Shown piece by piece: positions 5,814 to 32,827 of a stretch of 64,000 bases of DNA (positions are counted from its first letter, which is position 1; every line of letters begins with the position of its first letter). Source of the stretch: a virus (lineage: Duplodnaviria; Heunggongvirae; Uroviricota; Caudoviricetes); IMG/VR virus record IMGVR_UViG_3300035661_000046, positions 1-64,000 of that record; one strand, written 5' to 3'. The position numbers were made by a program, and so were the translations under genes. Below the pieces are notes generated by a model. The model was not told where the DNA came from. It searched no databases and worked only from the letters and a program-made list of their open reading frames with translations.

Positions 5814-5828
5814 TTTAAACTCCTAAAA

Positions 5829-6976: not shown

Positions 6977-7079
6977 TTATACTTAAAACTGCTAAATCCT
7001 GTTTAGTACTGGCTAGTTCTTCTGTGGTTGGCTGGTACTTGGTAATTTCTTGTGACATAGTAATTCCTTTATTAGAGTT

Positions 7080-15528: not shown

Positions 15529-16127
15529 AAGAAATACCCGTCCAATACCTTGCCAGTTAGTCTGTAGGCATAAATATGATTAGGCCACCATGAATACGAG
15601 CTTGCACTTTCTTTACCAACCATTACTTGCCCAGGTTCATCTTGAATCAGGTACTCGAACTCCAGCCCGTCAGGTAAGGGGCAATCGCCACCTAGCCATA
15701 TAGTCCACGGCTGGTTGGGTGTAATCCGCACGTTACTTGGGTTAATTGTGAATACGTCTGAGTTGCTGTCCGCAGTTTTCGAGGTCGTACCACCTTGGTA
15801 ATAATGCACCATTCCACTGCTAAACGAGCTGAAATAGCGGTCATCGTTTCCTGAGCAAAGACCAAGTGTAATAAGGGTGTCAACTGGTAGCTTAGTCCAG
15901 TTAATCTGCTTCGCCACTGACTTCATTCGTAGATTGTGGATGTGTGCACGGTTAGTGGGAGAGCGCCCCTTCGCACTATAAGTATAGATATATCTCCCTA
16001 TTTGCACCACAACCTGATGGGCGTGCGTGGCAGTAGATCTATATGCAACAAACTCTACTGGGGTTCCGGCTTCTGTCTCAATCGGTTCGCCAGCTATGGC
16101 TCGTTGTAAATCAAATTGGTTGTTCAT
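15525..16127 (-). CDS. hypothetical protein, tandem paralog B
   Basis: Shares N-terminus LQRAIAGEPIETEAGTPVEFVAYRSTA and C-terminus IYAYRLTGKVLDGYFL with the upstream gene. Confidence 0.55.
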   Translation of the reverse strand: MNNQFDLQRAIAGEPIETEAGTPVEFVAYRSTATHAHQVVVQIGRYIYTYSAKGRSPTNRAHIHNLRMKSVAKQINWTKLPVDTLITLGLCSGNDDRYFSSFSSGMVHYYQGGTTSKTADSNSDVFTINPSNVRITPNQPWTIWLGGDCPLPDGLEFEYLIQDEPGQVMVGKESASSYSWWPNHIYAYRLTGKVLDGYFL

Positions 16128-16747
16128 AATTTATACCCTTCAAGTAATTTTCCAGTTAGTCTGTACGCGTAAATAATATGATGAGTCCATAATAACCCTC
16201 TTGCGTTTTCTTTACACGTTATTTTTCGTCCTATTTCATTGTTAGCTATATATTCAAACTCCAGCCCATCAGGAATAGGACATTCACCACCTAACCACAC
16301 TGTCCACGGCTGCTCTGTAGAGATAGTAACATCAGCTATAGGTATCGATACTGTATCACAGCACGTGTATGAAGTGCCCCCATCCATAAATACGTTGATC
16401 AATATCTCTGGAACATTAACATTTATAGAGCTAAAAGCAAATTTTCCGCTATATTTAGTATCCAAAATCGTATCAACTGGCATCTTCGACCAATCAACTT
16501 GCTTCACCACTGACTTCATGTGAAGGTCAAAATAACAATTGGTAGCTCGACTAGGGTACCTTCCGTTTGCAGGATACATCAATATATCAGTTCCCACTTG
16601 TATGATTAGCTGCTTACCCGCCTCCGCAGTAGGTCGATAGGCAACAAACTCAACAGGTGTTCCAGCTACAGTTTCAATCGGTTCGCCGGCTATGGCTCGT
16701 ATTAAATCAAATTCATTATTCATTTGAAACCTCCTTAAAATTACCAA
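16124..16747 (-). CDS. hypothetical protein, tandem paralog A
   Basis: LIRAIAGEPIETVAGTPVEFVAYRPTA ... WTVWLGGECPIPDGLEFEY ... IYAYRLTGKLLEGYKL. Strong SD (AAGGAGGT) and the shared upstream element. Confidence 0.55.
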   Translation of the reverse strand: MVILRRFQMNNEFDLIRAIAGEPIETVAGTPVEFVAYRPTAEAGKQLIIQVGTDILMYPANGRYPSRATNCYFDLHMKSVVKQVDWSKMPVDTILDTKYSGKFAFSSINVNVPEILINVFMDGGTSYTCCDTVSIPIADVTISTEQPWTVWLGGECPIPDGLEFEYIANNEIGRKITCKENARGLLWTHHIIYAYRLTGKLLEGYKL

Positions 16748-16765: not shown

Positions 16766-16810
16766 GTGGGTAAACCTACTTATTTAAACACACCTCAATA
16801 CTCTTCATCG
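16766..16810 (-). promoter_or_regulatory. ~45-bp conserved upstream element (copy 2)
   Basis: accaatggactactgtaccatcagtgggtaaacctactt, homologous to 14031..14085. Confidence 0.4.
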
Positions 16811-17347
16811 TATAACCCCTCCATACTTAAAGTGTAACAGTATACTGCTTGGTGCTTGCTTATCACTGTTTACTTCCGTAAAAGGTATTCCATTATTCAG
16901 TAGCATCTCTTTTATTTCTGCATCCTTTTCAACAGCCTCTTGCTCAGTCTGCTTTCTACCTACAGGATCGTATACTTTATCTCTAATCAAGAAGTAGTTA
17001 TAATTATCGTAGGTGTCCCACAGCTCAAACATCAAACTCTTAAAAGTGTTAGGTAGATAGTCTGCAGTAACATAATTAATACCTAGTATTAACGGGGAGT
17101 CAGTTATAATGGTGTCTCTCTTACCTTGTAACCGAGCCATGCGTCTATTTTGATTACCAAGAATGTGCAACTGATCTGTTAGCAGATAATCGTTACCCTC
17201 CCACGTCAGATCCTTAGCATACTCGGTTACTTCTTCTACTTTCTGTCCATCCCATTTCATTAGAAAGAACAACCCGGCTCTCGTGGTGCTTTTACCGCAT
17301 CCAGGGCCCCCAAATAAGTTTATTACTTTAGTTTTGTTTTCATTCAT
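16805..17347 (-). CDS. P-loop NTPase/kinase (possible polynucleotide kinase-like)
   Basis: Walker A GGPGCGKST near the N-terminus of a 180-aa protein. Its start overlaps the stop of the upstream ligase gene, suggesting translational coupling. Confidence 0.45.
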   Translation of the reverse strand: MNENKTKVINLFGGPGCGKSTTRAGLFFLMKWDGQKVEEVTEYAKDLTWEGNDYLLTDQLHILGNQNRRMARLQGKRDTIITDSPLILGINYVTADYLPNTFKSLMFELWDTYDNYNYFLIRDKVYDPVGRKQTEQEAVEKDAEIKEMLLNNGIPFTEVNSDKQAPSSILLHFKYGGVIR

Positions 17348-18467
17348 AATCTCTTATTATTACTCCTACTGGAAACGTTGGAATTCTATTGTTAGTTAAA
17401 TCTTGAAATCTTACCGTTAAATGTTTGCCTACTAGTGAGTCTAACTCTGAAAATAACTTAGCCCGATACTCTCTTGTACCCTCCGGTCTCACATCAAAAG
17501 TTCTACCTTCTTTTGTAGCACAGGTAAATACCACTGTTCCCTCGTCTTCACCACTAGCCTCATTCCCCCCAACAATCAGGAACTCCTCTTCTTGAAAGTC
17601 TTTGAGTTTTTGAAGGTTTACGGATCTGTGCCCTACTATGTAAGAGGAGCCTATATTTCTAATCATAGTACCTTCATAACCATTATCCTGGTTACTACGA
17701 TGTACTATTAATAACTCCTCTTCATTATTTACAGTTACGGTGTTAACTTTATAGATATGAGTAGACTGGGTAAACCCTCGATTGTAGAATCTATTCCAAA
17801 AGGATAAGCTCGGATGTACTACGTCGTAGACATGGTATTCTAAAGTAGATAGTAACTCATGATCCGACCTCTCTCTCTTAATAGCAGCAACGATATCTTG
17901 AAGAGGTAATCCTTTTTTAAAGATCTCCCCATCAAAGGTCTCTCCTACTTCCATAAGTTTTAGCAGGTCTTGAGTTAAATGGCCTAGAGTATTAAAAGGC
18001 TTCCCTCCCCTAGACATGTACTGTATCTGGGTTTCACTCACTTTTGTAGCTAAGCATCTTACACCATTGAGTTTGGGTTGTGTTGCTGCTGGCCAGGAGA
18101 TGTTATGGCTACGCTTTGAGTAAGAATGAGCTAGCATCGGAAGCATGGTGCTAGCGCTACCTGTATTCTGGTTAAATGCGGCTGACTCTAAATAACCCTC
18201 ATCTAGCTTCTTGCACCACTTGGAGGATGCTTCTAGTAGAGCCTGTTCCAAAGCAGTAGTCTCATTCTTTCTACCTATATTCTTGCTCTTTATTTCAGAA
18301 GAGTAGGTTACGGTTTGCTTACCATCTAATAACCCTCGTGTGGTCTTTAATTTGTAACCTCCAGTGTCAGGCTCAACAACACGTATCTCCCACACCTTTG
18401 TGGAGCCAGTAGAGGTTAGTCCGAAAAGCTTAGGTAGCTGTCTGGGATTTTCTATATTCTCTGACAT
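17340..18467 (-). CDS. ATP-dependent nucleic-acid ligase family protein (DNA ligase-like)
   Basis: Nucleotidyltransferase motif I-like KLNGVR (a K-x-N-G variant of K-x-D-G) and FDGEIF/EGTMIR downstream motifs. 375 aa, comparable to small phage ligases. Confidence 0.5.
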   Translation of the reverse strand: MSENIENPRQLPKLFGLTSTGSTKVWEIRVVEPDTGGYKLKTTRGLLDGKQTVTYSSEIKSKNIGRKNETTALEQALLEASSKWCKKLDEGYLESAAFNQNTGSASTMLPMLAHSYSKRSHNISWPAATQPKLNGVRCLATKVSETQIQYMSRGGKPFNTLGHLTQDLLKLMEVGETFDGEIFKKGLPLQDIVAAIKRERSDHELLSTLEYHVYDVVHPSLSFWNRFYNRGFTQSTHIYKVNTVTVNNEEELLIVHRSNQDNGYEGTMIRNIGSSYIVGHRSVNLQKLKDFQEEEFLIVGGNEASGEDEGTVVFTCATKEGRTFDVRPEGTREYRAKLFSELDSLVGKHLTVRFQDLTNNRIPTFPVGVIIRDYE

Positions 18468-19803: not shown

Positions 19804-20274
19804 TTAGTTAATGAATGAACCGCCTAGTATTGAAGACGATCCTTTAGCGTAGATATTACGACGAGGACGTTCTTTATAGTTACTTTTAGGAGGTTCCTTG
19901 TCACTACAACGATGAACAATCGTCGGAAGCCCTTCTATCCTAAATATCTGTTTTTCTACAGCAGCCTCTTCTGCTTTTCTTGCCTTTGTTGCAGCGTCTT
20001 TAATTAGACGCTCTAACATAAGAGATTCCGCGCTTCTAGTTACTAAAACAGATGCAGAATACCGTTTTAGGTTACTGTCTATTTCAAAGGTAACTTCTTC
20101 TAACTTCACCATTGTACGTAGTAGTAGAGTAGTGGCGTTTACATTTACCCCGATTCTATCACTAAGCTCCTCAATGGATAAACCATCATTCTTCATGAGC
20201 TCATTAAGTACCGACTGACGACGCTCTTCCGAGGTCTTAAATACATTTTTTCTTGTTTTACCGAGATTACTCAT
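19804..20274 (-). CDS. hypothetical protein (possible HTH-containing regulator)
   Basis: 156 aa. The N-terminal segment LSIEELSDRIGVNVNATTLLLRTM looks HTH-like. Promoter motif at 20316-20326. Confidence 0.4.
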   Translation of the reverse strand: MSNLGKTRKNVFKTSEERRQSVLNELMKNDGLSIEELSDRIGVNVNATTLLLRTMVKLEEVTFEIDSNLKRYSASVLVTRSAESLMLERLIKDAATKARKAEEAAVEKQIFRIEGLPTIVHRCSDKEPPKSNYKERPRRNIYAKGSSSILGGSFIN

Positions 20275-20315
20275 TTAGTCTCCTAACATAAAGTGAATTG
20301 TTTTCTTGCTATAGT

Positions 20316-20326
20316 TCTTATACCAA
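20316..20326 (-). promoter_or_regulatory. extended -10 promoter motif copy
   Basis: ttcttatacca about 45 nt upstream of the 20274 start. Confidence 0.5.
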
Positions 20327-20349
20327 AGAAACATTACATTATAGGAATG

Positions 20350-20380
20350 TAAAAAAAGCCGATGTGTAAATATCGGCTTT
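20350..20380 (-). terminator. rho-independent terminator (minus strand)
   Basis: Hairpin agccgat gtgtaaat atcggct followed by T7 in the minus sense, just downstream of 20403..20801. Confidence 0.65.
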
Positions 20381-20402
20381 AGGAGAAACTTAAGCTAGTT
20401 AC

Positions 20403-20801
20403 TTATTCGCAGTCGGACGCTTTACTATCTAAATATTCCTTATAAGCTTTCTTAATATGGTCCACAAGGGTGGGGTTCATATAGTCGTATTGATCAGGAA
20501 CATCTAAACAAACAAATTCTGTAAGGTCTGGAAAGCGGTTCATAAGCTCTAAACCCATCCACTGTTCCGCAACAATTACTTCATCCGCCCACTCAATTAG
20601 AACGTCCGTAACATCTATTAATGCATACTCTGACTCTAGCCCAGCTGCACGAGTGTTATAGTCGTATTCTTCCGCTAGAACACGAGACATAGTAGGAGAG
20701 CGCAGTAGTCCTGCGCTACAGACACAAAGGACTCGTTTGCTAGAACCTTGAAAATGATTGTGACAATTTGCTAATTTATTTCTCGAACTTGGTGTTGTCA
20801 T
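20403..20801 (-). CDS. low-molecular-weight phosphotyrosine phosphatase/ArsC-like phosphatase
   Basis: N-terminal P-loop C-x5-R-S (CVCSAGLLRSP) typical of LMW-PTP/arsenate reductase. 132 aa. Confidence 0.45.
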   Translation of the reverse strand: MTTPSSRNKLANCHNHFQGSSKRVLCVCSAGLLRSPTMSRVLAEEYDYNTRAAGLESEYALIDVTDVLIEWADEVIVAEQWMGLELMNRFPDLTEFVCLDVPDQYDYMNPTLVDHIKKAYKEYLDSKASDCE

Positions 20802-20879
20802 TTAAATATTCCTTTTACTGTCAGAAATCATTAACCTAACCTTGTCAAAGATAATGATGTGTAATACTAGTGTTGCAAG

Positions 20880-20964
20880 TGGTGCCCGAGGCCAGATTTG
20901 AACTGGCACGCTGTAAAGCAATGGTTTCTAAGACCATCGTGTCTACCAATTTCACCACTCAGGC
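20880..20964 (-). tRNA. tRNA-Leu (anticodon TAG), long variable arm
   Basis: Manual cloverleaf: acceptor GCCTGAG/CTCGGGC (one G-U), D-arm GTGAAATTGGTAGACAC, anticodon stem ATGGT/ACCAT with loop CTTAGAA, long variable arm, T-arm GCCAG TTCAAAT CTGGC, CCA encoded. 85 nt. Confidence 0.8.
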
Positions 20965-21057
20965 GTTACTGGTAATAAGGATTGGTGCTATTTCTAGAGT
21001 AGATCCACTGAGGGATCCTCCTAATTTATAACATCAATCCATATTACTATTAAAATG

Positions 21058-21128
21058 AGCGGGTGGGGAGAATCGAACTCCCATTTTAAGTTTGGAAAAC
21101 TTAAGCTCTACCATTAAACTACACCCGC
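21058..21128 (-). tRNA. tRNA-Gly (anticodon TCC)
   Basis: Acceptor GCGGGTG/CACCCGC, D-arm TAGTTTAATGGTAGAGC, anticodon loop TTTCCAA, T-arm GGGAG TTCGATT CTCCC. CCA not encoded. Confidence 0.75.
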
Positions 21129-21450
21129 GTCGATAATGCAAGGTAGCAAGTATCAACTTGCAAACTGCAACATATCAACAATAAGTTTTATCCCTCACCT
21201 GTTAAGCTCATTTATCCATCACAACAATATTCGACGAATCGATAGCGGGATAATGAGAAGGGTCAGAGATTCCATTAAGCTCGTTGAGGCTTGGCCTCAA
21301 CTATATGTGTGCTACCTTGCAGCCAGTGCCTCTTCCGTTATAGGAAACAGTAAAAAACCTATGGCCGAGGCTGTCGTAAGAGAGGGTACATGAACGATCA
21401 AGAACTTACCTCTCTCACGGTAGGACTGGCAACCTACTAAAACTATTATA

Positions 21451-22071
21451 CTACTCTAGAGCAGCTATTTCAATAGCTGTAGCACTTAACGCAACACAAA
21501 CTTTGTTACGATTAAGATCTGAGATGTCATCAGAGAGCTTAACTAAGGTGCGTTTTGCATCAACCTCAGCTTTCTTTACTAGTTCTATGAAAGACTCATC
21601 TAGAATGGCAATAGGATAACCAGCGCTACGTCCACTCATTAACGCATAAGAAGCTCTAGATGCATCAGCTACATTTACATCTAATCCTTCAAAAGTGCTA
21701 TAGGACATCTTACCTTCAGTGGAACCGGTAATCAGTTTATAAGCTGCCAAAGTTCTCTGAGCAGCATCTATTCTAGTCAGTTTACTTGTTATGCCATGCT
21801 CTAGATTGGCTGCAGCCACTTGGTCTTTTATGCGGACCAGGTCTGCCTGTAAATTAGTGATATTCGTAACAGCCTGAGCTGCTTCTAACGCATACTTAGT
21901 AACTAAAGCTTGAGAGTAGGAAGCCTTAGTAGTTACGTTGAAGTTAGTATCCTCTACTCGTTTTTTGAGTAGTGCAGTATTCTCAGAGATACTTGCGTTA
22001 ATACGCTCTACTACTTTGTGCCATCTATTTAAGGTTAAACTAATGCTTTTGCTTGGTGTCGTTGAATTCAT
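21451..22071 (-). CDS. hypothetical protein
   Basis: 206-aa ORF, Ala/Thr-rich and probably helical. Confidence 0.5.
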   Translation of the reverse strand: MNSTTPSKSISLTLNRWHKVVERINASISENTALLKKRVEDTNFNVTTKASYSQALVTKYALEAAQAVTNITNLQADLVRIKDQVAAANLEHGITSKLTRIDAAQRTLAAYKLITGSTEGKMSYSTFEGLDVNVADASRASYALMSGRSAGYPIAILDESFIELVKKAEVDAKRTLVKLSDDISDLNRNKVCVALSATAIEIAALE

Positions 22072-22109
22072 ATTTTATTCCTAAAATTTAAGTCAGAGTT
22101 GAATTGAGT

Positions 22110-22184
22110 TGGTGGGTCTGAGGAGTTTCGAAATCCTAACCCATGAATTATGAGTTCATTGCTCTTCCCTTGAGCTACAGACCC
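22110..22184 (-). tRNA. tRNA-Met (anticodon CAT; could equally be an Ile-lysidine tRNA)
   Basis: Acceptor GGGTCTG/CAGACCC, D-arm TAGCTCAAGGGAAGAGCA, anticodon stem ATGAA/TTCAT with loop CTCATAA, CCA encoded. The T-stem has one mismatch. Confidence 0.7.
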
Positions 22185-22193
22185 CTTGAAACT

Positions 22194-22270
22194 TGGTGCG
22201 CCCGACAAGAGTCTAACTTGTAACCCCCGATGTAGAAGATCGGTGCTCTATACAATTGAGCTACGGACGC
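22194..22270 (-). tRNA. tRNA-Arg (anticodon TCT)
   Basis: Acceptor GCGTCCG/CGGGCGC (one G-U), D-arm TAGCTCAATTGTATAGAGCA, anticodon stem CCGAT/ATCGG with loop CTTCTAC, T-stem ACAAG/CTTGT, CCA encoded. Confidence 0.75.
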
Positions 22271-22277
22271 ATATTTT

Positions 22278-22472
22278 TTATACTACAGAAAGAATCGGTC
22301 TAATATCTTCAACGTTCATTCCAGCTAACTCAGCTATTGCCTTAGCCTTATCAATGTTAGATACTCTGCTATTCCTAATCCAAGAATGTACTGCTCCATT
22401 GGAAACTCCTAGAAGGTTAGAGGTTTTTGTTACGCCGCCAATTTTTTCTACTGCTACTTTTATGTGGTTCAT
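22278..22472 (-). CDS. small Cro/YdaS-like HTH DNA-binding protein
   Basis: 64 aa; GVTKTSNLLGVSNGAVHSWIRN is a typical Cro/YdaS HTH. Confidence 0.5.
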   Translation of the reverse strand: MNHIKVAVEKIGGVTKTSNLLGVSNGAVHSWIRNSRVSNIDKAKAIAELAGMNVEDIRPILSVV

Positions 22473-22554
22473 TTGATAAATCTCCCTAGATGGTAGGGAT
22501 TATACTACTGCGTAAATAAAGATACAAGATATTTCTTTAGTAGCTTAAAAGTAG

Positions 22555-22590
22555 GCTAAAAATAAGGACGCACCAAGCATCCTTATTTGT
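22555..22590 (-). terminator. rho-independent terminator (minus strand)
   Basis: Hairpin aaggacgc accaa gcatcctt (one G-U) followed by a T-run in the minus sense, downstream of 22608..23048. Confidence 0.5.
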
Positions 22591-22607
22591 AACTACCTAA
22601 AAATTAC

Positions 22608-23048
22608 TTAAGCAGATACTGGTGCTGCTGGGGCTACTTCTGCAACTACTTCTGGTGCAACAAAGTCAGCAGGTACTTTTTGCAAGTCAGCTTTAGTATC
22701 ACGAGGAACTCCCATGCCTAAAGACTTAGCCAAAGGCAGAAAGTTTTGTGAAGCCAGACCATATTGAGTAGCACGTTTTACACCAGCCATCATATCTTTT
22801 AGACCAGCGATTTGTGATTCCAAGGTAGCAATGGTTGCAGCATTGCTTGTCAAGAATGCATCTTTGGTTGCCAACAGGTTAACGATCTCACCAGCCGCTT
22901 CATCAACAACTTTAGTACGGCGCTCAGTCATTTGACGATTCAAAGAAGTCTGGATGTCCAGAGGTAAGCCGCCGAAGTCAGCAACTTGCTGTTCGATATC
23001 TTTGTCAGCTAAACGAACTAAAGTAGCCATATCTATTGGAGCGTTCAT
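22608..23048 (-). CDS. hypothetical protein (coiled-coil, phasin/scaffold-like)
   Basis: 146-aa Ala/Gln/Leu-rich ORF. Promoter motif at 23144-23154. Confidence 0.45.
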   Translation of the reverse strand: MNAPIDMATLVRLADKDIEQQVADFGGLPLDIQTSLNRQMTERRTKVVDEAAGEIVNLLATKDAFLTSNAATIATLESQIAGLKDMMAGVKRATQYGLASQNFLPLAKSLGMGVPRDTKADLQKVPADFVAPEVVAEVAPAAPVSA

Positions 23049-23169
23049 GTGTATTTCCTTTTATTGAGTTAAAAAACTAAAAAATGAATTGACAGTTTTA
23101 CCTACTCTGACAAAGGTTAGCGAGAATGTATCTTCTCTAAATTTCTTATACCAAGTAAATTGACATTAT

Positions 23170-23373
23170 TTAATTATTAACGCAGAGTTCTCTCATTCTA
23201 GGTAATATCCTATTAAGCTTGGCTGTTTGTTCAACCCTACAAGAACTTATGTATACTGGATGAAAAGGTACTCCCGCATCAGACATATCTTCTGTATCCA
23301 GTACTGCAAATAAAGCTTTTACTAATCTTCTAAGTTCTTCAGGGTCATATTCTTCCAAATCTATATCATTCAT
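23170..23373 (-). CDS. hypothetical protein
   Basis: 67-aa acidic ORF. Confidence 0.35.
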   Translation of the reverse strand: MNDIDLEEYDPEELRRLVKALFAVLDTEDMSDAGVPFHPVYISSCRVEQTAKLNRILPRMRELCVNN

Positions 23374-24397
23374 AGGTAATCCTGTCTAAATAATCAAAGT
23401 ACCATTTACGAGCTTTATTACTAACTGCACTGCCTACGTCTTTAGGCTCTAACCCCGACTCAACTATAGTATCGGTTTCCTCTTTAAGAATATCATTGTA
23501 AACCCAACGAACAAAGTCTCCTGTGCTTTTAACGTCAATGGCACGGTTGGTTTCCTTCAAGAAGGCTATGCTTTGTAGAAGTCTATTCTCTGTTACACAT
23601 TTCTCTAAGAAAGCTTCTATGGAAGCTACCTTCTCTAAGTCTACTGCTGCTAGAGTCTTAACTTTAGATGAGGAGTGTTTTTCTCCTTTGACCTTAAACC
23701 ATAGTTCACTAGTCTCTAGCCCAGGAGTAACACAAGACCATACTATTCCTTCTCCTGTTCCTTCTATGCCAAATGCCTTGCCTACCGGACAGCACTCTTC
23801 TACTTTAGTAGTCAGTTCAATTAAGGTATTCTGAGACAAAGCAGGGTTTTCAAAGTCAATAGAAATTGAGAATGTAGGGAAGTCGTGTATTAAATACGTT
23901 GATCTCTCTGGATATGATTTCAAGTCAGGAAAGTCTGAAGGATTATACCAAGTATCTCCTGCCATTATCTTGAAGATTACAAACATCTTTTTAAGTTTAG
24001 AAATGGCTACTCCTGCTTGAATTGATCCTCCACACCATTCTCCAAATAGAGTTAGTGGGCCTCTATACTTTATGGTTGATGAAACAATAGATGCAATCTC
24101 ATAAAAGTGATCTCCGTAAGACCTACCCCAGAAAGCAAATCCAGCATTATCATTTTCTACAGATAGTATTCTTTCTCTACTTTGAAAAGTAAGTCCTCCT
24201 AAAGGTCCTATTACTACTGCGGCATTAGTACCATGAAGTTTTACTGTCCCCTCAAAGTCTAGAACAGGCAATTTCTTAGTACGGTCGTATTTAAGCTCTC
24301 CTGCACTATCTACCCCGATAAATCTTGTCCTGCGATCTACTTTCTGTATTACGGTTCTAAACTGCTCTATTGATGGAAATTTAATATGTTCTTGCAT
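23366..24397 (-). CDS. RNA ligase 2-like (Rnl2 family) nucleotidyltransferase
   Basis: Motif I KLHGTN (T4 Rnl2 has KIHGTN) about 55 aa from the N-terminus. Further motifs FGEWCG and KVKG. 343 aa against 334 aa for T4 Rnl2. Confidence 0.65.
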   Translation of the reverse strand: MQEHIKFPSIEQFRTVIQKVDRRTRFIGVDSAGELKYDRTKKLPVLDFEGTVKLHGTNAAVVIGPLGGLTFQSRERILSVENDNAGFAFWGRSYGDHFYEIASIVSSTIKYRGPLTLFGEWCGGSIQAGVAISKLKKMFVIFKIMAGDTWYNPSDFPDLKSYPERSTYLIHDFPTFSISIDFENPALSQNTLIELTTKVEECCPVGKAFGIEGTGEGIVWSCVTPGLETSELWFKVKGEKHSSSKVKTLAAVDLEKVASIEAFLEKCVTENRLLQSIAFLKETNRAIDVKSTGDFVRWVYNDILKEETDTIVESGLEPKDVGSAVSNKARKWYFDYLDRITYE

Positions 24398-24399
24398 AA

Positions 24400-25572
24400 T
24401 TAATCCTCTGTGATCATAGGTAAAAAATCTTCTCCGGGAAGCCCAAGAAAAGACATGCCTTGTTTTATAACAAACTCTTTATAGTTGTTTTCTCTTCCTA
24501 TGTATAAGTTCATCATCAACCCCATTACCTCATGGTGCTCGGTGTTAGCCTTAATAGCGTATTCTTTACGGCCTAGACCTTTATTCTCTTCATAGAAATC
24601 TTCTACGGTTTTTACTAAGTGATTGAACTTTGGAATAACCATATCTTCCATTTTAGAAAGCTCGGCTAGCACCCAAGCATCATCTGAGAAAGCAGAACGT
24701 ATATCATCTGATAACTCATTTACTACTAACGCAAATAATTTACTAGGGGTTTGAATAGAGTCTTTGGATTGGTGTAACTGAATGTAGGCTAGATTTTTGA
24801 CTTTAACTAAGTAGGAGGTAGAGTCTTCTCTCACCATCTCTATTACGTAACCCTCTCCTTTTTTCTCTTTGCGTATTTCAGAGACTAGTGTAGATTGGTC
24901 TACTTGATATAACCAAGTAGAGTCATATAAGTCCTGGTAATGTACAATCTGATCTATTAGTGTAGAGTACCTAGACATCATCAAATAATTACGAAGTTCA
25001 CTACCAAATAGTGTGCCTCCGGTAGTATGGTTTCTCACAGATAATATAGTTAACTTGTCCTCAGAATATGGAACCACTATGCGATTGGTAGGGGAAGTAT
25101 ATTCTAAGTTTACAGTAATACCCTCCTCCGCAGCTAGAAGTAATTCCGATTTAAATCGTCTGTTCTCTTCCAGGTCTAACCAAGTCATTGCCGCTATAGC
25201 TTGGCTAGAGAATAAGTCTGCTTTGGATTTAAGTCGTAGTTGACCTTTATATAAATAAGTAGAGATCAAGGAGCCATCAAGCTTGTCCATCATTGTACCT
25301 ACTATACACAGAGTGTGGTCTACACCACCTTCTTCATAATTAAAAAATTTCTGGGGAGGCAGGCTGACAAGAACGGGGTTATTAATATCAGTAACATTAA
25401 ACATTGTGCCTCGGCAATCTAAGGCTCCAGGCTTTTGGAACTGTGTCCAAGAGGCTAATCGGTAGTTGAAGATGTTATATAGCTGGTCTTCTAGTACCAC
25501 CTCTTTGCGGTAGAAACTTTCATCTTCATTTACTAAAGCTATTAACGTTTTATACATGTAAGCCTCTCTCAT
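24400..25572 (-). CDS. RNA ligase 1-like (T4 RnlA/gp63 family)
   Basis: Motif I DKLDGSL (T4 Rnl1 has KEDGSL) at about residue 96. 390 aa against 374 aa for T4 Rnl1. Directly adjacent to the Rnl2-like gene. Confidence 0.6.
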   Translation of the reverse strand: MREAYMYKTLIALVNEDESFYRKEVVLEDQLYNIFNYRLASWTQFQKPGALDCRGTMFNVTDINNPVLVSLPPQKFFNYEEGGVDHTLCIVGTMMDKLDGSLISTYLYKGQLRLKSKADLFSSQAIAAMTWLDLEENRRFKSELLLAAEEGITVNLEYTSPTNRIVVPYSEDKLTILSVRNHTTGGTLFGSELRNYLMMSRYSTLIDQIVHYQDLYDSTWLYQVDQSTLVSEIRKEKKGEGYVIEMVREDSTSYLVKVKNLAYIQLHQSKDSIQTPSKLFALVVNELSDDIRSAFSDDAWVLAELSKMEDMVIPKFNHLVKTVEDFYEENKGLGRKEYAIKANTEHHEVMGLMMNLYIGRENNYKEFVIKQGMSFLGLPGEDFLPMITED

Positions 25573-26000
25573 CTATGGTGCTTTGCTGTATACAACAAAG
25601 TTATTTCACTAGCGGTTACTGTATTTACCATCGTTATGTGTTTAGTAGGAACCCATCCTGTAGGGCCATCATCTATCTTAGTAAGATAATCCCCCATAGG
25701 TAACACGCATACTCCTTCAGGAATTCTATCTTCGTCCAAAGGTAGGTATACTATTTCCATGTTGTTATATCTAGGCATAATATGTAGATAGTGTAAGCCC
25801 ACTGGGTGTATAGTAACACCATCTTCTAAATAGTTAAGTATGTATTCATGTACGCTATTAATAGCAGTGACAAAGTCCTTTCCAAGATTTGAAAGGGTAT
25901 GGTTATATAACGCTGGTATTATAGCCGATATACTTCCAGTAGACGGCTCCTGCGTCATACAAATGTAATAGGAATATCTAGGGTCTTCGTTAAAGTTCAT
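25569..26000 (-). CDS. hypothetical protein
   Basis: 143-aa ORF. Confidence 0.45.
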   Translation of the reverse strand: MNFNEDPRYSYYICMTQEPSTGSISAIIPALYNHTLSNLGKDFVTAINSVHEYILNYLEDGVTIHPVGLHYLHIMPRYNNMEIVYLPLDEDRIPEGVCVLPMGDYLTKIDDGPTGWVPTKHITMVNTVTASEITLLYTAKHHR

Positions 26001-26074
26001 TCTTACTCCTTATTAAATGAAAATCCCAGATGATTAGTCTGGGATTGTGTGGTGGAAAGTATTTGATTCGAAAG

Positions 26075-26308
26075 TTACTCTTTATGTGCATCAGCCAGCT
26101 TAGCTAAACCTTCTCCTACTCCATCGGCAAAATTTCTGTTATGGCACTCAATAAGCATAACTTTTGCTTTTCTAATAGTAGCTGCTCGGTGTCTATTCTG
26201 TTCAGCACAGAACTCGGTTACAACGTTTCTAGTCGGGGTAGATAACTCATCATACACGGCTATCTTCTGATCTAGAATATGCAATATAAAACTTAGTTCT
26301 TCATCCAT
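26075..26308 (-). CDS. hypothetical protein
   Basis: 77-aa ORF. Confidence 0.4.
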   Translation of the reverse strand: MDEELSFILHILDQKIAVYDELSTPTRNVVTEFCAEQNRHRAATIRKAKVMLIECHNRNFADGVGEGLAKLADAHKE

Positions 26309-26523
26309 TACGACGTCACCACAAGTTTAAAATCTGGATTTAACCAATATGGGACTTGTTCATATAGTGGTTTTTGCGTGGGAGTTATCGGTCCAATGGT
26401 CGGATTAGACATAGTTAGGTTATGTACCTCTATTCGTAGGGCAGTAACCTCTGCTCTTAGCTTAGATAACTCCTGTTTCATATCATTGACTTCTTCAGTA
26501 TCAAATACTTTTTCGTGTGGCAT
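26308..26523 (-). CDS. hypothetical protein
   Basis: 71 aa; coiled N-terminal half. Confidence 0.4.
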   Translation of the reverse strand: MPHEKVFDTEEVNDMKQELSKLRAEVTALRIEVHNLTMSNPTIGPITPTQKPLYEQVPYWLNPDFKLVVTS

Positions 26524-26541
26524 GTAATACTCTTTCTATAT

Positions 26542-26619
26542 TGGCACTCCCGTAGTGAATCGAACACCACTCAGTCTGGTTTGGAGCCAAACTCGCCTCG
26601 CCTTGGAACATGCGGGAGC
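26542..26619 (-). tRNA. probable tRNA-Trp (anticodon CCA) with an atypical, extended D-arm
   Basis: Acceptor GCTCCCG/CGGGAGT (G-U at 1:72), anticodon stem TTTGG/CCAGA (one G-U) with loop CTCCAAA, T-arm TGGTG TTCGATT CACTA, CCA encoded. The D-arm region (TGTTCCAAGGCGAGGCGA) does not fold canonically. Confidence 0.45.
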
Positions 26620-26679
26620 ATTGTTTAAGTCTTCTTACTAATGCTACTATGGAGCTGGCTCCATTTAAACTCCTAATTC

Positions 26680-26754
26680 TGGCAGTGGATACAGGGATTG
26701 AACCTGTGCATGACGGGATCAAAACCCGTTGCCTTTCCTCTTGGCTAATCCACA
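26680..26754 (-). tRNA. tRNA-Gln (anticodon TTG)
   Basis: Acceptor TGTGGAT/ATCCACT (1:72 mismatch), anticodon stem ACGGG/CCCGT with loop TTTTGAT, T-arm ACAGG TTCAATC CCTGT, CCA encoded. Confidence 0.7.
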
Positions 26755-26759
26755 CCTGT

Positions 26760-27056
26760 TCAAACTAATTTAGCAAAACGTCTAACTAAAAACATTAACC
26801 ATTTAGGGGCGTAAATTATAGCTGTAACCTGTGCCGGTAATACCTTCACGCCATTCATTCTAACGTGAAAAAACTCACTATAAGCATCCTGTGTTAATGA
26901 GAATACCGCCTCTGTTTCCGACCGGTTTAATTCATAAAATGCACAGTTAGTTATATACTGCCCCTTCTCCTCGGGGGTAGTCGTTGGTTTATAAACTAGG
27001 TCTATGATGTGTTTAGCACTAAGCCTATCAGTAAACGGTATTTTTTTCTCTATCAT
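26760..27056 (-). CDS. hypothetical protein
   Basis: 98-aa ORF. Confidence 0.45.
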   Translation of the reverse strand: MIEKKIPFTDRLSAKHIIDLVYKPTTTPEEKGQYITNCAFYELNRSETEAVFSLTQDAYSEFFHVRMNGVKVLPAQVTAIIYAPKWLMFLVRRFAKLV

Positions 27057-27244
27057 AAGGTTCTCATTACTAGACTATAGGAAAAGTAATAGCATAAGAC
27101 ATTCAAACACTCCCTTGATTATTACTAATTAATTATAGTGGAAGTATAGATAACGATCATAGTGGACGAATGTAGCTGCTTTACCAGCAGCTACACCTCA
27201 TTAACGGTCTACACTTCCTTCTAAACTATAAGGATTGTTACATT

Positions 27245-27469
27245 TTACTCGAATGCGCTATTATCAGCAAGGCTATCTTCTAAGTCATGTATATCCCCTA
27301 GTATTCTAATAGGCTCTGCTCTACCTACTACATATACCTCTATTACTGGTCTGAATCTACCACCTTCTTTTATAGGAGTCCCACACACAAGGTGTGTAAT
27401 TTGTTTAGCCATAATTGCTACAGAGGTAGGTATCGCCGTATCTGCTAGTACATATCCAATAATTTTCAT
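27245..27469 (-). CDS. hypothetical protein
   Basis: 74-aa ORF. Confidence 0.4.
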   Translation of the reverse strand: MKIIGYVLADTAIPTSVAIMAKQITHLVCGTPIKEGGRFRPVIEVYVVGRAEPIRILGDIHDLEDSLADNSAFE

Positions 27470-27492
27470 AGTCTATTCCTTTATTCAAACAT

Positions 27493-27524
27493 TAAAAAAC
27501 CCAGAGAAGTTTCCTAGTCTGGGT
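27493..27524 (-). terminator. rho-independent terminator (minus strand)
   Basis: Hairpin cccaga ctaggaaacttc tctggg followed by T6 in the minus sense. It sits downstream of the tRNA-like gene and upstream of 27245..27469. Confidence 0.65.
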
Positions 27525-27695
27525 ATCATTAGTTGCAAGTTAAAGTTGAACCTCTTTACTCCGAGTAATACCCTCCAATGTCCAGTGGATAATCTTGTGA
27601 GGGCCAAAACTGATTATTTAAGAGTGAGAGGTTCATGCTTTTTATTTTAATACACTTTTTTACGTTTTTCAACCATTTGTGAAAATAGTTTCAAG

Positions 27696-27768
27696 TGCCC
27701 TCAGAACGAATTGAACGCTCGACCTCTTGATTATAAATACAAGTGCTCTACCGCTGAGCTATGAGGGT
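27696..27768 (-). tRNA. aberrant tRNA-like gene (18-nt anticodon arm giving an 8-10-nt loop; A1:C72 mismatch; no encoded CCA)
   Basis: Canonical D-arm TAGCTCAGCGGTAGAGCA, variable loop AGGTC, T-arm GAGCG TTCAATT CGTTC and a 6-bp acceptor. The anticodon arm CTTG-TATTTATAAT-CAAG is one nt too long. A perfect extended -10 (TGGTATAAT) lies about 15 nt upstream. Confidence 0.5.
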
Positions 27769-27782
27769 TGCTCTACTTAGTT

Positions 27783-27792
27783 ATTATACCAG
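27783..27792 (-). promoter_or_regulatory. extended -10 promoter (minus-sense TGGTATAAT) driving the tRNA-like gene
   Basis: + strand tattatacca, whose reverse complement tggtataata matches the TGnTATAAT consensus exactly. It lies between the NAMPT stop and the tRNA-like 5' end. Confidence 0.55.
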
Positions 27793-27795
27793 TTA

Positions 27796-29199
27796 CTAGA
27801 AGATAATGGAACTATTTTTCCTAACCGCATCAAAAGAGACACTCTTAACGAAACCTGGACGGTATACCTGAGTAAGCATATCCCTACCTCGGTTCTTCCC
27901 GGGTGTGATTCTATCACTATAGAAGCCAATACGATCATCCAAGAAAGTAGAAACTATTCCTCGTTTAGATGCCTTACCAGGATCAGTTTTAGGATCCTTG
28001 TACACATCTACTTCTACCCCATTCACGGTTACACTAGAGCATTTCATAGCCCACTTGAAGGTATCACGGTCTAAACGCTGCAGCAAGGCTCCGCCCATAC
28101 CAAAGGCTATATTATCAATAGAGAACATCTCTTTCAGCATCGCAGTTAAGATTTCTTCGATAGAGTCCATATTAACACCATCTCCTTGAATAATACGCAC
28201 GTTATTAAGTACCTTATAACCCTTAGAGTTTATGGTGTACCCGAATGACTTCTGTAAAGAGCGCAAGCAATACATAACCATGCTCTTTGGATTTCCTGAG
28301 TCGGGACGAAGTACTACTGTAGCACCAGAGTCAATAACCTCTTGTTTTAAATCACGACCCCAGATGACGTCTACTGCGTTATACATGTCGTAGGCATCTA
28401 CTACTACAGCAAAGTAAGCCCCAGGAACACCAAACTGCTTAATCATGTTAGAATAAGCTGCCTGCTCATAAGGCCGACCCCAGCTTGTTATAGTCGAGTG
28501 CTCTGCTGCAGGAATACTACCGGAAACAAAACCTTTAGCGTCATAGTTTCTGCGAAGCCAAGGTGTTGCTGCAATAGTATCAGAACCCATGAAGTTAACT
28601 AAGTGTGCTGCACCACCAACCTGGGATGTTTCATAGGATGAACAACCGCGACTTCCGAAGTCATGTAACTTGAAATTAATCTGACTGTCAGGATCATCAC
28701 TAGAAATAACAAGCCCGCGATAAATCATATCTTTAATCGTCTTACTTACTGTAGAGACAGTGCTGCCATACCAGATAGCTCGTAGTATCTGAGTTTCATA
28801 ATGGCCTGGTGCCCAGAATACTTTAGGGTCGATAGAATCTATACGAGCTACTGGCAAGTTAATAGGTACGTTAATACCTTCTTCTATAGCATGTATAGAA
28901 ATAGGTGCAAAACCACCATGCTCTTTAACAATGTATTCCCAAGCATCCTTCTTGAAAGGTACACCTTGCATTGCAAATTCTTCTGCAGCTTCCTCTACGT
29001 TGTCGAGCGTCGCTGGAGTAGAGAGATACTCCTTGATGTAACCTTGAAGACCAAACATTTGAGTCTTGTAAACACCTTGGATGGTTGAGCCTCGAGCTTC
29101 TACATAGGAACTCATGCTCGTTGTCCCTTTAGGGAACTGGTCTGGGTGACTTGGTTTATAGCTATCCGTATCCAAGATTGGATTGTAAGTTTGTTTCAT
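27796..29199 (-). CDS. nadV: nicotinamide phosphoribosyltransferase (NAMPT/NadV)
   Basis: N-terminus MKQTYNPILDTDSYKPSH is the hallmark of NadV/NAMPT (NPIL.TDSYK.SH). 467 aa is typical for the family. Confidence 0.85.
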   Translation of the reverse strand: MKQTYNPILDTDSYKPSHPDQFPKGTTSMSSYVEARGSTIQGVYKTQMFGLQGYIKEYLSTPATLDNVEEAAEEFAMQGVPFKKDAWEYIVKEHGGFAPISIHAIEEGINVPINLPVARIDSIDPKVFWAPGHYETQILRAIWYGSTVSTVSKTIKDMIYRGLVISSDDPDSQINFKLHDFGSRGCSSYETSQVGGAAHLVNFMGSDTIAATPWLRRNYDAKGFVSGSIPAAEHSTITSWGRPYEQAAYSNMIKQFGVPGAYFAVVVDAYDMYNAVDVIWGRDLKQEVIDSGATVVLRPDSGNPKSMVMYCLRSLQKSFGYTINSKGYKVLNNVRIIQGDGVNMDSIEEILTAMLKEMFSIDNIAFGMGGALLQRLDRDTFKWAMKCSSVTVNGVEVDVYKDPKTDPGKASKRGIVSTFLDDRIGFYSDRITPGKNRGRDMLTQVYRPGFVKSVSFDAVRKNSSIIF

Positions 29200-29211: not shown

Positions 29212-30267
29212 CTATAAAAAGTAATTGATGATATGAAGGTGATCTTCATAAAATTTGTGACTTAATTCTGGCAAAGCTGAGAATGGAACCCAGAATGCCT
29301 TCTTTGCATCGTCGCTACCTTTAACCTTGGGTAGCCCAGGAGTTAGGTCAGAGCCATCTAACCTAAATAAGAACGCATGAGTAATAGTTCTACCTCTAGA
29401 AGATCGGCCTGGAGAATCGAATACTTTAGAATCTCCTTTATTGGCATGATCTAGAACAGGTAGAGGGACTTTTAAACGAGTCTCCTCTCTTAACTCACGT
29501 AAAGCACAAGAGTATAACGTTTCGTTAGGATCAATGAAGCCCCCAGGTAAGGCATACAGTCCTTTGCCGGGAAATCCTCCTCGCTCTATTAAAAGAACAT
29601 GGCCATTCTTTATTACTACTGCGTCTGTTGTTACAAAGATTGGAGTATGTGGAGAACCTGCCCAAGCTTCTTTATATTCTCTAATAAAGGAGTCTTCTTC
29701 AAGCAGTAGATAGTACTCTTCTGAAAAAGCAAACTCTCTTAGAAAAGCTTCTGTACCCGTAGGTACTCTACTATAAACCGCAGCCTCACGCATTTTAGAA
29801 AGAGTATTTTCGTTAAAATACATACTCCGTAAAAGGCTGGCATTTATATCACCTGCTAGGCTACCAACTTCAACGTGAGGCCCCCATTGAGGGAATTCTA
29901 GTAAATATCCTGTATCTTCTTTTAGATGGCCTATTAGTTTTGGATTCTTAGCCTCAAGCAGTGAAACTACGTCGTTAACCTCCTCTTGGACTGATTCCAA
30001 CCATCGGTTGTTGGCATACAGGTAATCCTTTACTGCAACAAAGAATACTCTACTAGCAGAGTCCGGATCTAGAGAGCTAGTTATCATATTGATTCGCTCT
30101 TCATCACTAAAGGGATTTTTTAGACTCCTAGAGGACCTAGAGGACCCTAATACTATTATCACCTTGTCTGCTATATTCAGGGCCTCAAGCATAGTCGCCA
30201 TATGACCATTATGAAAGATCTGAAATCTTCCGATCATTATTAAAACTTCGTGTTTCTTATTTGACAT
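29212..30267 (-). CDS. natV: bifunctional NMN adenylyltransferase / Nudix hydrolase (NadM-Nudix, NatV-like)
   Basis: The N-terminal nucleotidyltransferase carries H-x-G-H (GRFQIFHNGH). The C-terminal Nudix box is GGFIDPNETLYSCALRELREETRL. Directly downstream of nadV, as in vibriophage KVP40. Confidence 0.8.
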   Translation of the reverse strand: MSNKKHEVLIMIGRFQIFHNGHMATMLEALNIADKVIIVLGSSRSSRSLKNPFSDEERINMITSSLDPDSASRVFFVAVKDYLYANNRWLESVQEEVNDVVSLLEAKNPKLIGHLKEDTGYLLEFPQWGPHVEVGSLAGDINASLLRSMYFNENTLSKMREAAVYSRVPTGTEAFLREFAFSEEYYLLLEEDSFIREYKEAWAGSPHTPIFVTTDAVVIKNGHVLLIERGGFPGKGLYALPGGFIDPNETLYSCALRELREETRLKVPLPVLDHANKGDSKVFDSPGRSSRGRTITHAFLFRLDGSDLTPGLPKVKGSDDAKKAFWVPFSALPELSHKFYEDHLHIINYFL

Positions 30268-31724: not shown

Positions 31725-31990
31725 TATTCATACCCCGTTATTTCACGAAGTTCATAACCAGGATCACCCTCCTCGAAAGTAGGAGCAGTAGCCTTAGCTG
31801 TGTTAGTTACGTATAACCAACGTGCAGTACGTGTACTTTGTAAAGCACAACCCTCTACGGTTGCAGGAATAAAATTACAATTACCGCACCCACACTTTCT
31901 AGTTCTGAGAAACTTCTTATTATTAGCCAAATCCTCAAAATACTCTAGAGGGTACAAGCTATCTGTAAAGTCTTCTACTTCTTGTTCCAT
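31724..31990 (-). CDS. small Cys-rich (zinc-binding) protein
   Basis: CGCGNC...C motif; 88 aa. Overlaps the start of the RuvC-like gene. Confidence 0.4.
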   Translation of the reverse strand: MEQEVEDFTDSLYPLEYFEDLANNKKFLRTRKCGCGNCNFIPATVEGCALQSTRTARWLYVTNTAKATAPTFEEGDPGYELREITGYE

Positions 31991-32563
31991 TATCTATTTC
32001 CTATTTTATTTATCATTGTTAATAAATCTTCTTGCGAAGAACCCCGATGTACTACTACCAAGTCTCCCCAGTTTGGCCCTATCTCTGCTTCAACTCCAAT
32101 TGGTAGGTCTAGCCAGTCAAAGGTTTCAACAGGGTAGTCTTCCATGTAATAGAAGGCTGTCTCTAGGACTTCAGCTGCGTGTTGTAGAGGACATTCTATT
32201 TCAATTGAGTCATAGACGGTACAGATGCACTTTGCACCAAACTTCTTTATAGCGTTATTTAAAGCTGTAAACACCACCAACCCTAATGTCGACGATGTAG
32301 ACTGTACCCTAACATTCTGAGAATTTCTTAATGCAGCATTATACACTGCAGTCTTCTTATACATTGGCAAAGTACCAAACTCCATCTTACGCTGTGCAAA
32401 AGGAGTATACACAAACTGGTTGTGCTTTGCCATTGCATGTGCATCTTCTACATATTTCTTAATAAGAGGGTATGTATCGAAGTACATGTTAATTAAAGTC
32501 TGAGCTTCTTCTTTAGAGATTCCCAGGTTCATTGCGACTCCTGCTACAGAGGAGCCGTATAAG
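31990..32563 (-). CDS. family A DNA polymerase, polymerase subunit, exon 2 (C-terminal part incl. motif C)
   Basis: GSSVAGVAMNLGISKEEAQTLINMYFDTYP corresponds to Pol I [37 protein letters not shown] is the motif C (HDE) region. The frame is open upstream of the tracked Met back to the predicted 3' splice site at 32563. Confidence 0.7.
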
Positions 32564-32827
32564 CACTTAGTCTACTACTTTCGTAATAGAGTGGACTATA
32601 CCATTACCCTTTTCTAAAACACGCTTTTACGAGGGTATTCGCCGTATTATACCTAGTTAAAGGTATCGCAGCAAGATCTGTTCTAGATCTTCTGTCAGTC
32701 TCTGAACCATTTATACCAATCCCTTGGTATTCTGGCTGCTGATTGCCATACCTAGTATCTAGGGTTAGGGTTCCAGCAATTGAGCGAATTTTTAATACAG
32801 CATTACTACCGTATGGCACCTAAGTTA
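32564..32827 (-). mobile_element. group I intron (ORF-less, 264 nt) in the DNA polymerase gene
   Basis: It interrupts Pol A between motif B and the following helix. Predicted P1: exon ggcaU paired with intron GUGCC (U-G at the splice site). The intron starts taacttag and ends ...ctaagtG. It shares four conserved blocks with the rtcB intron, including a P7-like AUAGUCC element. Confidence 0.65.

Follow-up and report, generated by a model that had tools for sequence, protein, structure and literature searches.

We identify two adjacent ATP-dependent RNA ligase genes, one of the Rnl1 family and one of a divergent Rnl2 type, at positions 23366-25572 of a 64,000-nt stretch of an uncultured Caudoviricetes phage (IMG/VR record IMGVR_UViG_3300035661_000046, positions 1-64,000), the whole of which we call the window. 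We propose that this locus is a packed RNA-ligase block which, together with an RtcB ligase encoded elsewhere in the window, would repair RNA cut by host defences or toxins, a reading to which sequence comparison leads us to assign a probability of about 0.6. The adjacency had been called from the letters alone in an earlier reading (the original prediction), and it stands: the two open reading frames (ORFs) share the minus strand, with the Rnl2-like gene downstream across a 2-nt gap, and both family assignments are confirmed. The ligase features on which the argument turns are the following.

24400-25572, minus strand: Rnl1-family ATP-dependent RNA ligase, 390 amino acids (aa), with a nucleotidyltransferase domain and a C-terminal T4_Rnl1_C tRNA-specificity domain
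23366-24397, minus strand: divergent Rnl2-type ATP-dependent RNA ligase, 343 aa, with a nucleotidyltransferase domain and a four-helix C-terminal domain
63317-63534, minus strand: RtcB exon 1, codons 1-73, ending in AAVGV (ORF translation, with the splice junction read from the sequence)
63013-63316, minus strand: ORF-less group I intron of 304 nt in RtcB (Rfam RF00028)
62052-63012, minus strand: RtcB exon 2, from a GTP-dependent ligase of 3'-phosphate (3'-P) or 2',3'-cyclic-phosphate (2',3'>P) and 5'-OH RNA ends (Pfam PF01139)

The upstream gene of the pair encodes what is, by every comparison made here, a true T4 Rnl1-family RNA ligase, whose catalytic activity we predict. Its motif I reads DKLDGSL, and the protein matches RNA_lig_T4_1 (PF09511, 2.3e-14), T4_Rnl1_C (PF20819, 2.5e-18, residues 270-361) and phrog_562 (2.6e-82). 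Its score on the NCBIfam equivalog of the T4 RnlA family (TIGR02308) is 247.2 bits, above the cut-off of 242.25, and it aligns over its full length with the structure of T4 Rnl1 (2c5u, E=1.7e-44), the alignment reaching residue 365. Pairwise alignment with the T4 Rnl1 reference sequence (NC_000866) places the adenylylation lysine of T4, K99, at K97 of the window protein, and D101 and G102 at D99 and G100. In the same alignment R54, K75, F77, K119 and E159 of T4 correspond to R54, K75, F77, K117 and E157, and E227, G228, K240, K242 and Y246 to E240, G241, K257, K259 and Y263; we take this set of essential residues to be the one defined by the mutagenesis of the Shuman laboratory. Motifs Ia, III, IV and V and the Rnl1-specific N-terminal residues are all kept. 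The closest phage relative, from Pseudoalteromonas phage XG4, is just 40% identical.

The downstream gene encodes a Rnl2-type ligase of a separate clade, its activity again being a prediction, here from profile alignment and a structural model. Motif I is KLHGTN, and the protein matches Pfam PF09414 (6.3e-11) and phrog_548 (9.2e-65). A single-sequence phmmer search of the PDB returned nothing at E<=1, and a profile built from 40 homologues was required for detection; its sole PDB match is T4 Rnl2 (2hvq, E=3.6e-11), over residues 52-311 against 35-299. The family-profile alignment equates K53 with the T4 Rnl2 lysine K35, and H55, T57, N58, R74, E120, F142, E216, K235, K237, R272 and D302 with T4 H37, T39, N40, R55, E99, F119, E204, K225, K227, R266 and D292. 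The motif V lysines K235 and K237 were assigned from the HMMER profile alignment, since MAFFT --add misplaced that motif. Ten of these positions (K53, H55, N58, E120, F142, E216, K235, K237, R272 and D302) are invariant across the 40 homologues, and T57 and R74 are kept in 39 of them; the equivalents of T4 R33 and E34 are not conserved. The motif I lysines of both ligases, K97 and K53, occupy the canonical positions, as the original prediction had supposed.

An AlphaFold (AF2) model of the Rnl2-like protein, with a predicted local distance difference test score (pLDDT) of 91.3, places four C-terminal helices after a low-confidence linker (residues 241-252). Its top Foldseek match in the PDB is T4 Rnl2 on a nicked duplex (2hvr_A, E=3.4e-10, full length), followed by Naegleria NgrRnl and trypanosome REL1. 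The helical C-terminal domain homologous to T4 Rnl2 residues 244-329 is present, the profile alignment reaching T4 residue 299. The clade is very large. Searches placed 4274 database proteins (E<=1e-3) in it, along with 548 IMG/VR stretches and 203 phage records; among the hosts of these phages are Ralstonia, Caulobacter, Klebsiella, Vibrio and Mycobacterium. Our literature search found no biochemical study of the clade. One homologue, at 92% identity, is filed at NCBI as a hypothetical protein on a 3.9-kb contig of an archaeal 'Ignisphaera sp.' metagenome-assembled genome (MAG), which is probably a phage contig misbinned into that MAG.

The two ligase genes sit in a tight array of four minus-strand ORFs (25569-26000, 24400-25572, 23366-24397 and 23170-23373), in which, in this order, neighbours overlap by 4 nt, stand 2 nt apart and overlap by 8 nt. 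Since the ligase genes abut and are flanked by overlapping ORFs, co-expression is suggested, and the four-gene block between the two tRNA groups is probably co-transcribed. The outer members of the array and the tRNA genes around it are as follows.

25569-26000, minus strand: 143-aa ORF (orf143), an orphan; its stop and the Rnl1 start share 4 nt (ORF list)
23170-23373, minus strand: 67-aa ORF, sharing 8 nt with the end of the Rnl2-like gene (ORF list)
20880-22270, minus strand: four tRNA genes, Leu(UAG), Gly(UCC), Met(CAU) and Arg(UCU), downstream of the ligases (ARAGORN; Rfam RF00005, 58-68 bits)
26542-27768, minus strand: three tRNA genes, Trp(CCA), Gln(UUG) and Ile(UAU), upstream of the ligases (ARAGORN)

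orf143 has no match in Pfam, PHROG or NCBIfam, and its sole database homologue is 99% identical and presumably comes from the same phage; with no family and no homologue beyond that copy, we rejected it as a healing enzyme. The 67-aa ORF has no family match in Pfam or PHROG. Its homologues (34-37% identity) lie, in four viral contigs, directly upstream of homologues of the metallophosphoesterase encoded at 39648-40235, neighbourhoods that would tie this phosphoesterase family indirectly to the ligase block. The seven tRNA or tRNA-like genes of the original prediction are all called by ARAGORN, on the ligase strand, but Rfam confirms six: the tRNA-Trp (26542-26619) was not found by the Rfam tRNA model even at E<=0.1. 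It folds as a cloverleaf in which the D-arm is atypical and the anticodon stem has 6 bp, with the CCA end encoded; the z-score of the fold is only -0.9.

The third ligase, RtcB, was expected in the window and is there (PF01139, 340.7 bits), in a gene split by a group I intron. The profile match, by the 314-aa ORF 62052-62996 of exon 2, covers profile positions 52-426 only, and the missing N-terminus is supplied by a 74-aa ORF (63310-63534) in which AAVGV is followed by a stop codon. The intervening sequence scores 49.8 bits against RF00028 (E=9e-12), 0.2 bit below the gathering score of 50, and has canonical boundaries, with a U before the 5' splice site and a G at the intron end. It lies inside the GVD(L)GCGM metal-binding motif, which holds a Cys metal ligand; predicted splicing restores GVDLGCGM in a 392-aa protein that matches 2epg (6.5e-37) and P. 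horikoshii 1uc2 (4e-34) and keeps the GSGNHF, HSGSRG and HGAGR (SHGAGR) motifs in alignment with 2epg. Read in this way, the RtcB domain is complete once the predicted intron is spliced out. RtcB relatives in Bordetella phage PHB04 (68% identity) and in another viral contig (L103) are uninterrupted, and a full-text literature search for introns in RtcB genes of phages turned up no paper.

A second group I intron (32572-32837, minus strand; Rfam, 67.9 bits) lies in the family-A DNA polymerase, where it separates ORFs 32806-33783 and 31990-32532, and the catalytic cores of the two introns are nearly identical. At least three ORFs, in addition to this intron, make up the polymerase gene, and its 3'-5' exonuclease ORF (34116-35366, minus strand) holds an extra segment of the uracil-DNA-glycosylase superfamily (Pfam UDG, 1.5e-5, residues 97-191).

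Rnl1 and Rnl2 enzymes use ATP and a lysyl-AMP intermediate to join a 3'-OH to a 5'-phosphate (5'-P), Rnl1 preferring a single-stranded loop and Rnl2 a nick in a duplex. RtcB is GTP-dependent and joins 3'-P or 2',3'>P ends to a 5'-OH. Since Rnl1 and Rnl2 share their chemistry and RtcB differs, the phage has two chemistries in three enzymes, and the three chemically distinct ligation routes of the original prediction have to be reduced to two. Metal-independent anticodon nucleases (PrrC, RloC and colicin-type) leave cyclic-phosphate/5'-OH ends, which RtcB can join directly and Rnl1 could join only after healing.

We propose, on these grounds, that both ATP-dependent ligases of the window would join 3'-OH and 5'-P RNA ends through lysyl-AMP. 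The Rnl1 C-terminal domain, which in T4 steers the enzyme to broken tRNA anticodon loops, and the helical C-terminal domain of the Rnl2-like protein, which in T4 Rnl2 supports the sealing of duplex-RNA nicks, may divide the substrates between them. With the spliced RtcB, the pair would make both RNA end chemistries resealable in principle, and the likely use is to mend tRNA, and perhaps further structured RNA, after cleavage by toxins or by ribonuclease defences of the host. A role in RNA repair or in counter-defence is the standard reading of such gene sets (PMC7824862). Also in favour of the proposal are the tight gene packing, the tRNA genes on either side, the recurring linkage of Rnl1 to the Rnl2-like clade, the repair cassettes of related phages and the resealing of Toprim-type tRNA nicks by T4 Rnl1 and Rnl2, the last three being set out below.

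Metagenome contigs from several Joint Genome Institute and Sequence Read Archive samples are 99.9-100% identical to the window where they overlap it, and those found through exact protein look-up extend it by 9.95 kb past its right end, to about 74 kb in all; exact 33-mer scans of the genome_contigs and metagenome_contigs collections gave no longer contig. The full genome is probably larger, and a structural module was not seen in the 74 kb. The window has a G+C content of 39%, and a megablast search with positions 22000-27000 came back empty from 50,697 phage records, which means that no sequenced isolate is closely related to the phage.

Several observations weigh against the proposal. Queries with T4 polynucleotide kinase-phosphatase (Pnkp) and with the polynucleotide kinase (Pnk)-type kinase of the related IMG/VR locus L007 (tblastn, phmmer --max) had no match better than E=0.4 in either the window or its 9.95-kb extension, and neither a 2H phosphoesterase nor a Pnk-type kinase was detectable over the same span. 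The classical T4 Rnl1 and Pnk pathway, on which the original prediction leaned, is therefore incomplete in the visible part of an incomplete genome. Scans of 20000-28500 for promoters and terminators found no signal above shuffled controls. The counterpart of T4 Rnl2 D120 is K143 in the Rnl2-like protein and mostly Ala in its clade. Against the NCBIfam Rnl2 equivalog TIGR02307 the protein scores 20.2 bits, failing the cut-off of 197.15, in an alignment that spans residues 51-330 and profile positions 30-314 of 326; it is on account of this score that we file it as a divergent Rnl2-type clade and not as a RnlB equivalog. To our knowledge T4 Rnl2 itself has no established role in vivo. Finally, many of the related loci in which the two ligases are linked probably belong to related T4-like phages, a single lineage with inherited gene order, so that they do not count as independent events.

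Other enzymes in the window had been offered as members of a repair toolkit, and we asked of each how its family assignment stands.

16805-17347, minus strand: P-loop kinase-like protein, thymidylate/nucleoside-kinase-like (Pfam AAA_28; phrog_2107, 'thymidylate kinase')
17340-18467, minus strand: ATP-dependent DNA ligase, 375 aa (Pfam PF01068 and PF14743; phrog_114; NCBIfam PRK09125)
39648-40235, minus strand: metallophosphoesterase, 195 aa, with GNHD and GHSHG motifs (phrog_547, 1.9e-53)
4074-4796, minus strand: metallophosphoesterase, 240 aa (Pfam Metallophos, 5.3e-9; phrog_1649)

A Walker-A kinase overlapping an ATP-dependent ligase is indeed encoded at 16805-18467, the two genes overlapping as described, but the first is thymidylate/nucleoside-kinase-like and the second a DNA ligase, so that neither speaks for RNA repair. 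The best PDB match to a profile of the P-loop protein is the deoxynucleoside kinase 2jas (3.6e-5). The top 50 Foldseek matches of its AF2 model (pLDDT 92.7) are thymidylate kinase, deoxycytidine kinase (dCK), adenylate kinase and the ribosylnicotinamide kinase NadR, and none of them is a Pnk. Pfam, phrog, PDB profile and Foldseek results all lead us to reject it as a polynucleotide kinase; a scan of viral contigs for its relatives returned none. As an RNA-repair ligase 17340-18467 is likewise rejected, Pfam, phrog and NCBIfam all marking it as an ordinary ATP-dependent DNA ligase. Just downstream of this pair lie two adjacent paralogues of about 200 aa each (15525-16127 and 16124-16747, minus strand), which share an N-terminal FDLxRAIAGEPIET..GTPVEFVAYR and a C-terminal WLGGxCPxPDGLEFEY..IYAYRLTGK; a phrog 'kinase' match (6e-4) was set aside, because neither has a Walker A motif. 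Another RNA-acting enzyme, an Rv2179c-like 3'-5' exoribonuclease domain protein, is encoded at 50575-51213 (minus strand; Pfam PF16473, 1.3e-47).

Both metallophosphoesterases named in the original prediction are present, and we regard them as weak candidates for 3'-end healing. Homologues of the 39648-40235 protein follow a run of Rnl2-like, Rnl1 and Pnk-type kinase genes in L007 and adjoin RtcB in L013 and L103. RNA ligases are absent near 15 of the 18 loci with such homologues, and one of the 18 relatives stands beside RtcB; the association of this family with RNA ligases is sporadic and no more than a hint. The gene for a homologue of the 4074-4796 protein (29% identity, E ~1e-22) immediately precedes the Rnl2-like gene of Caulobacter phage Cr30. 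The broad tRNA-repair toolkit of the original prediction is thus supported in part only.

Given that no Pnkp appears in about 74 kb, the ATP-dependent pair would either act directly on ready 5'-P/3'-OH nicks left by metal-dependent nucleases or need a healing enzyme that lies outside the sampled sequence or has escaped recognition. The latter could mean that a T4-style pathway is complete after all, with Pnkp or a split kinase and phosphatase encoded in the unsampled genome, and that the locus is an ordinary countermeasure to PrrC-type nucleases. We consider this possible, although we would not expect it. The available sequence, about 74 kb, is probably just a part of the genome and shows no structural module, and healing enzymes generally accompany ATP-grasp RNA ligases (Iyer et al. 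2021). XG4, the closest Rnl1 relative, encodes a full-length T4-like Pnkp directly after Rnl1 (L005, 8001-10099), L007 has Rnl2-like, Rnl1, kinase-only Pnk and metallophosphoesterase genes in a row (3048-6980), and Cr30 has a metallophosphoesterase beside the Rnl2-like gene and a kinase-only Pnk after Rnl1 (L002, 5152-11395). In such phages metallophosphoesterases may, to judge from these gene orders, replace the HAD phosphatase of Pnkp. Against a distant healing enzyme, relatives keep Pnk or Pnkp directly beside Rnl1, and in the window the Rnl2-like gene occupies that slot; nothing Pnk-like was found in the 74 kb.

That the ligases are real and their co-location is merely inherited gene order in an early accessory region, with no functional cassette and with tRNAs that serve codon supply, seems to us unlikely. 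Neighbourhoods in 80 IMG/VR loci of the Rnl2-like clade bear on this. Rnl1 lies near the Rnl2-like gene (same strand, <=7 kb) in 25 of the 80, and upstream of it in 24 of those 25, as in the window. The distance between them in these relatives ranges from 0.25 to 7 kb with varied unrelated genes between, and near-direct adjacency occurs in L007 alone, with a 255-nt gap. Among the recurrent same-strand neighbours of the clade, annotated by reading their sequences, a T4-type DNA ligase stands at 31 loci, a 240-aa, possibly PTH2-like protein at 25, a 2H-like phosphoesterase (two HxS/T motifs) at 23, an HD-domain protein at 19 and a PARP-like protein at 15; the DNA ligase, the HD-domain and PARP-like proteins and others are typical of one lineage, as inherited order would have it. 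Profiles of the 2H-like phosphoesterase, HD, PTH2-like and PARP-like neighbours found no counterpart among all window ORFs. Against inherited order alone stand the 2-nt gap and overlapping flanking ORFs, which suggest co-expression, and the cassettes with healing enzymes in L007, XG4 and Cr30.

Codon supply explains the phage tRNAs equally well as replacement of cleaved tRNAs, the role assigned to them by the original prediction: the tRNA genes do flank the ligases, but none of the seven is a tRNA-Lys or tRNA-Tyr. U34 is present in five of them, which read A-ending codons (CUA, GGA, AGA, CAA and AUA). Such codons are frequent in 34 phage genes: Arg is encoded by AGA in 37% of cases, Ile by AUA in 41%, Leu by CUA in 24% and Gly by GGA in 25%, in a genome whose G+C at third codon positions (GC3) is 34%. 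Codon supply need not rule out a part in defence evasion (PMC10264068).

Our proposal of RNA repair could also be sharpened into a form that needs no healing enzyme, which we hold to be doubtful and put forward as speculation. Toprim tRNases (P2-OLD and PARIS AriB) leave 5'-P/3'-OH ends (PMC12445682, PMC12409363), and the 3'-OH ends of AriB products are documented (PMC12409363). When tRNA is nicked once by a P2-OLD mutant, T4 Rnl1 and T4 Rnl2 both reseal it without end healing (PMC12445682). As RtcB joins cyclic-phosphate ends, the gene set could cover both kinds of break without Pnkp. Rnl1 and the Rnl2-like ligase would then reseal the 5'-P/3'-OH nicks of metal-dependent tRNases, Rnl1 those in the anticodon loop and the divergent Rnl2 clade those in stems, the nucleases being of the Toprim kind (PARIS AriB, OLD-like) or possibly other metal-dependent tRNases. 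RtcB alone would take the cyclic-phosphate/5'-OH breaks of the PrrC, RloC and colicin types. Were this so, a long-orphaned phage Rnl2 family would gain a physiological role against recently found metal-dependent tRNA-cleaving defences.

The weakest alternative, which we think very improbable, holds that Rnl1 is mainly a tail-fibre attachment factor, a role that T4 gp63 also has, while the Rnl2-like ligase handles the phage's own RNA (possibly transcripts of the adjacent tRNAs, or RNAs released by the two group I introns) with no repair of host damage: phrog_562 and many GenBank records carry the name 'RNA ligase and tail fiber protein attachment catalyst', the block lies inside a tRNA cluster and the genome has at least two predicted self-splicing introns, but the catalytic residues and tRNA-specificity domain of Rnl1 are all kept, which argues for selection on ligase activity, tail genes are not adjacent to the block, and we know of no protein ligase that group I splicing or bacterial tRNA maturation needs.

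Directly upstream of the tRNA and ligase block lies an NAD+ salvage pair, given here as an observation in its own right.

27796-29199, minus strand: Nampt, 467 aa (Pfam NAPRTase and NAMPT_N)
29212-30267, minus strand: Nmnat-Nudix, 351 aa (Pfam CTP_transf_like and NUDIX; NCBIfam bifunctional NMNAT/Nudix, 359 bits)

The pair corresponds to the NARP2 pathway of NAD+ reconstitution, which counters NAD+-depleting defences (bioRxiv 10.1101/2024.02.11.579819).

Our data describe one more uncultured phage with RtcB, Rnl1, a Rnl2-type ligase, tRNAs and NAD+ salvage, and in this respect support existing views and change none. They also show that a very large Rnl2-type clade recurs near Rnl1, sometimes with kinase-only Pnk and metallophosphoesterases, and the clade therefore merits assays on tRNAs with a single 5'-P/3'-OH nick, the product of Toprim defence nucleases. 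A competent-looking Rnl1 without an adjacent Pnkp raises the question of which end chemistries phage ligases meet in vivo.

Set beside its closest model, T4 Rnl1 (RnlA, gp63), the window Rnl1 aligns over its full length at 29% identity (E ~1e-47) and keeps the essential catalytic residues and the C-terminal tRNA-specificity domain, but has about 22 extra residues inserted between its motifs III and IV, and its gene abuts a second RNA ligase inside a tRNA cluster. The T4 pathway in which Rnl1 and Pnkp repair tRNA-Lys cut by PrrC differs on two further counts, since the window phage shows no Pnkp partner in about 74 kb and no tRNA-Lys among its tRNAs. With T4 Rnl2 (RnlB, gp24.1; PDB 2HVQ/2HVR) the Rnl2-like protein shares a two-domain layout, and T4 Rnl2 is both its best and sole PDB profile match and its best full-length Foldseek match, yet the two are only about 18-19% identical. 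The phage RtcB has the Cys/His metal ligands and the HGAGR guanylylation motif of the bacterial and archaeal enzymes (E. coli; P. horikoshii PH1602, 1UC2/4DWQ), from which it differs in that its gene is interrupted at the Cys motif by a predicted self-splicing intron.

The nearest likeness as a set is to the RNA-repair systems of jumbo phages (Iyer, Anantharaman, Krishnan, Burroughs and Aravind 2021), in which ligases of this kind, with phage tRNAs, healing enzymes and Nampt/Nmnat NAD+ salvage, are read as counter-defence. The window phage matches them in its ligase trio, tRNAs and Nampt/Nmnat genes. Burkholderia phages BcepSaruman and BcepSauron carry RtcB, Rnl1 and Rnl2 together (Iyer et al. 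2021), and since phages of this composition are already described, the window phage adds a member to a known kind. It departs from the jumbo-phage sets in that its two ATP-dependent ligases abut directly, its RtcB is interrupted by a group I intron and healing enzymes are not seen. What is distinctive here is the combination of ligases abutting inside a tRNA cluster, no visible Pnkp, a divergent Rnl2 clade and an intron in RtcB.

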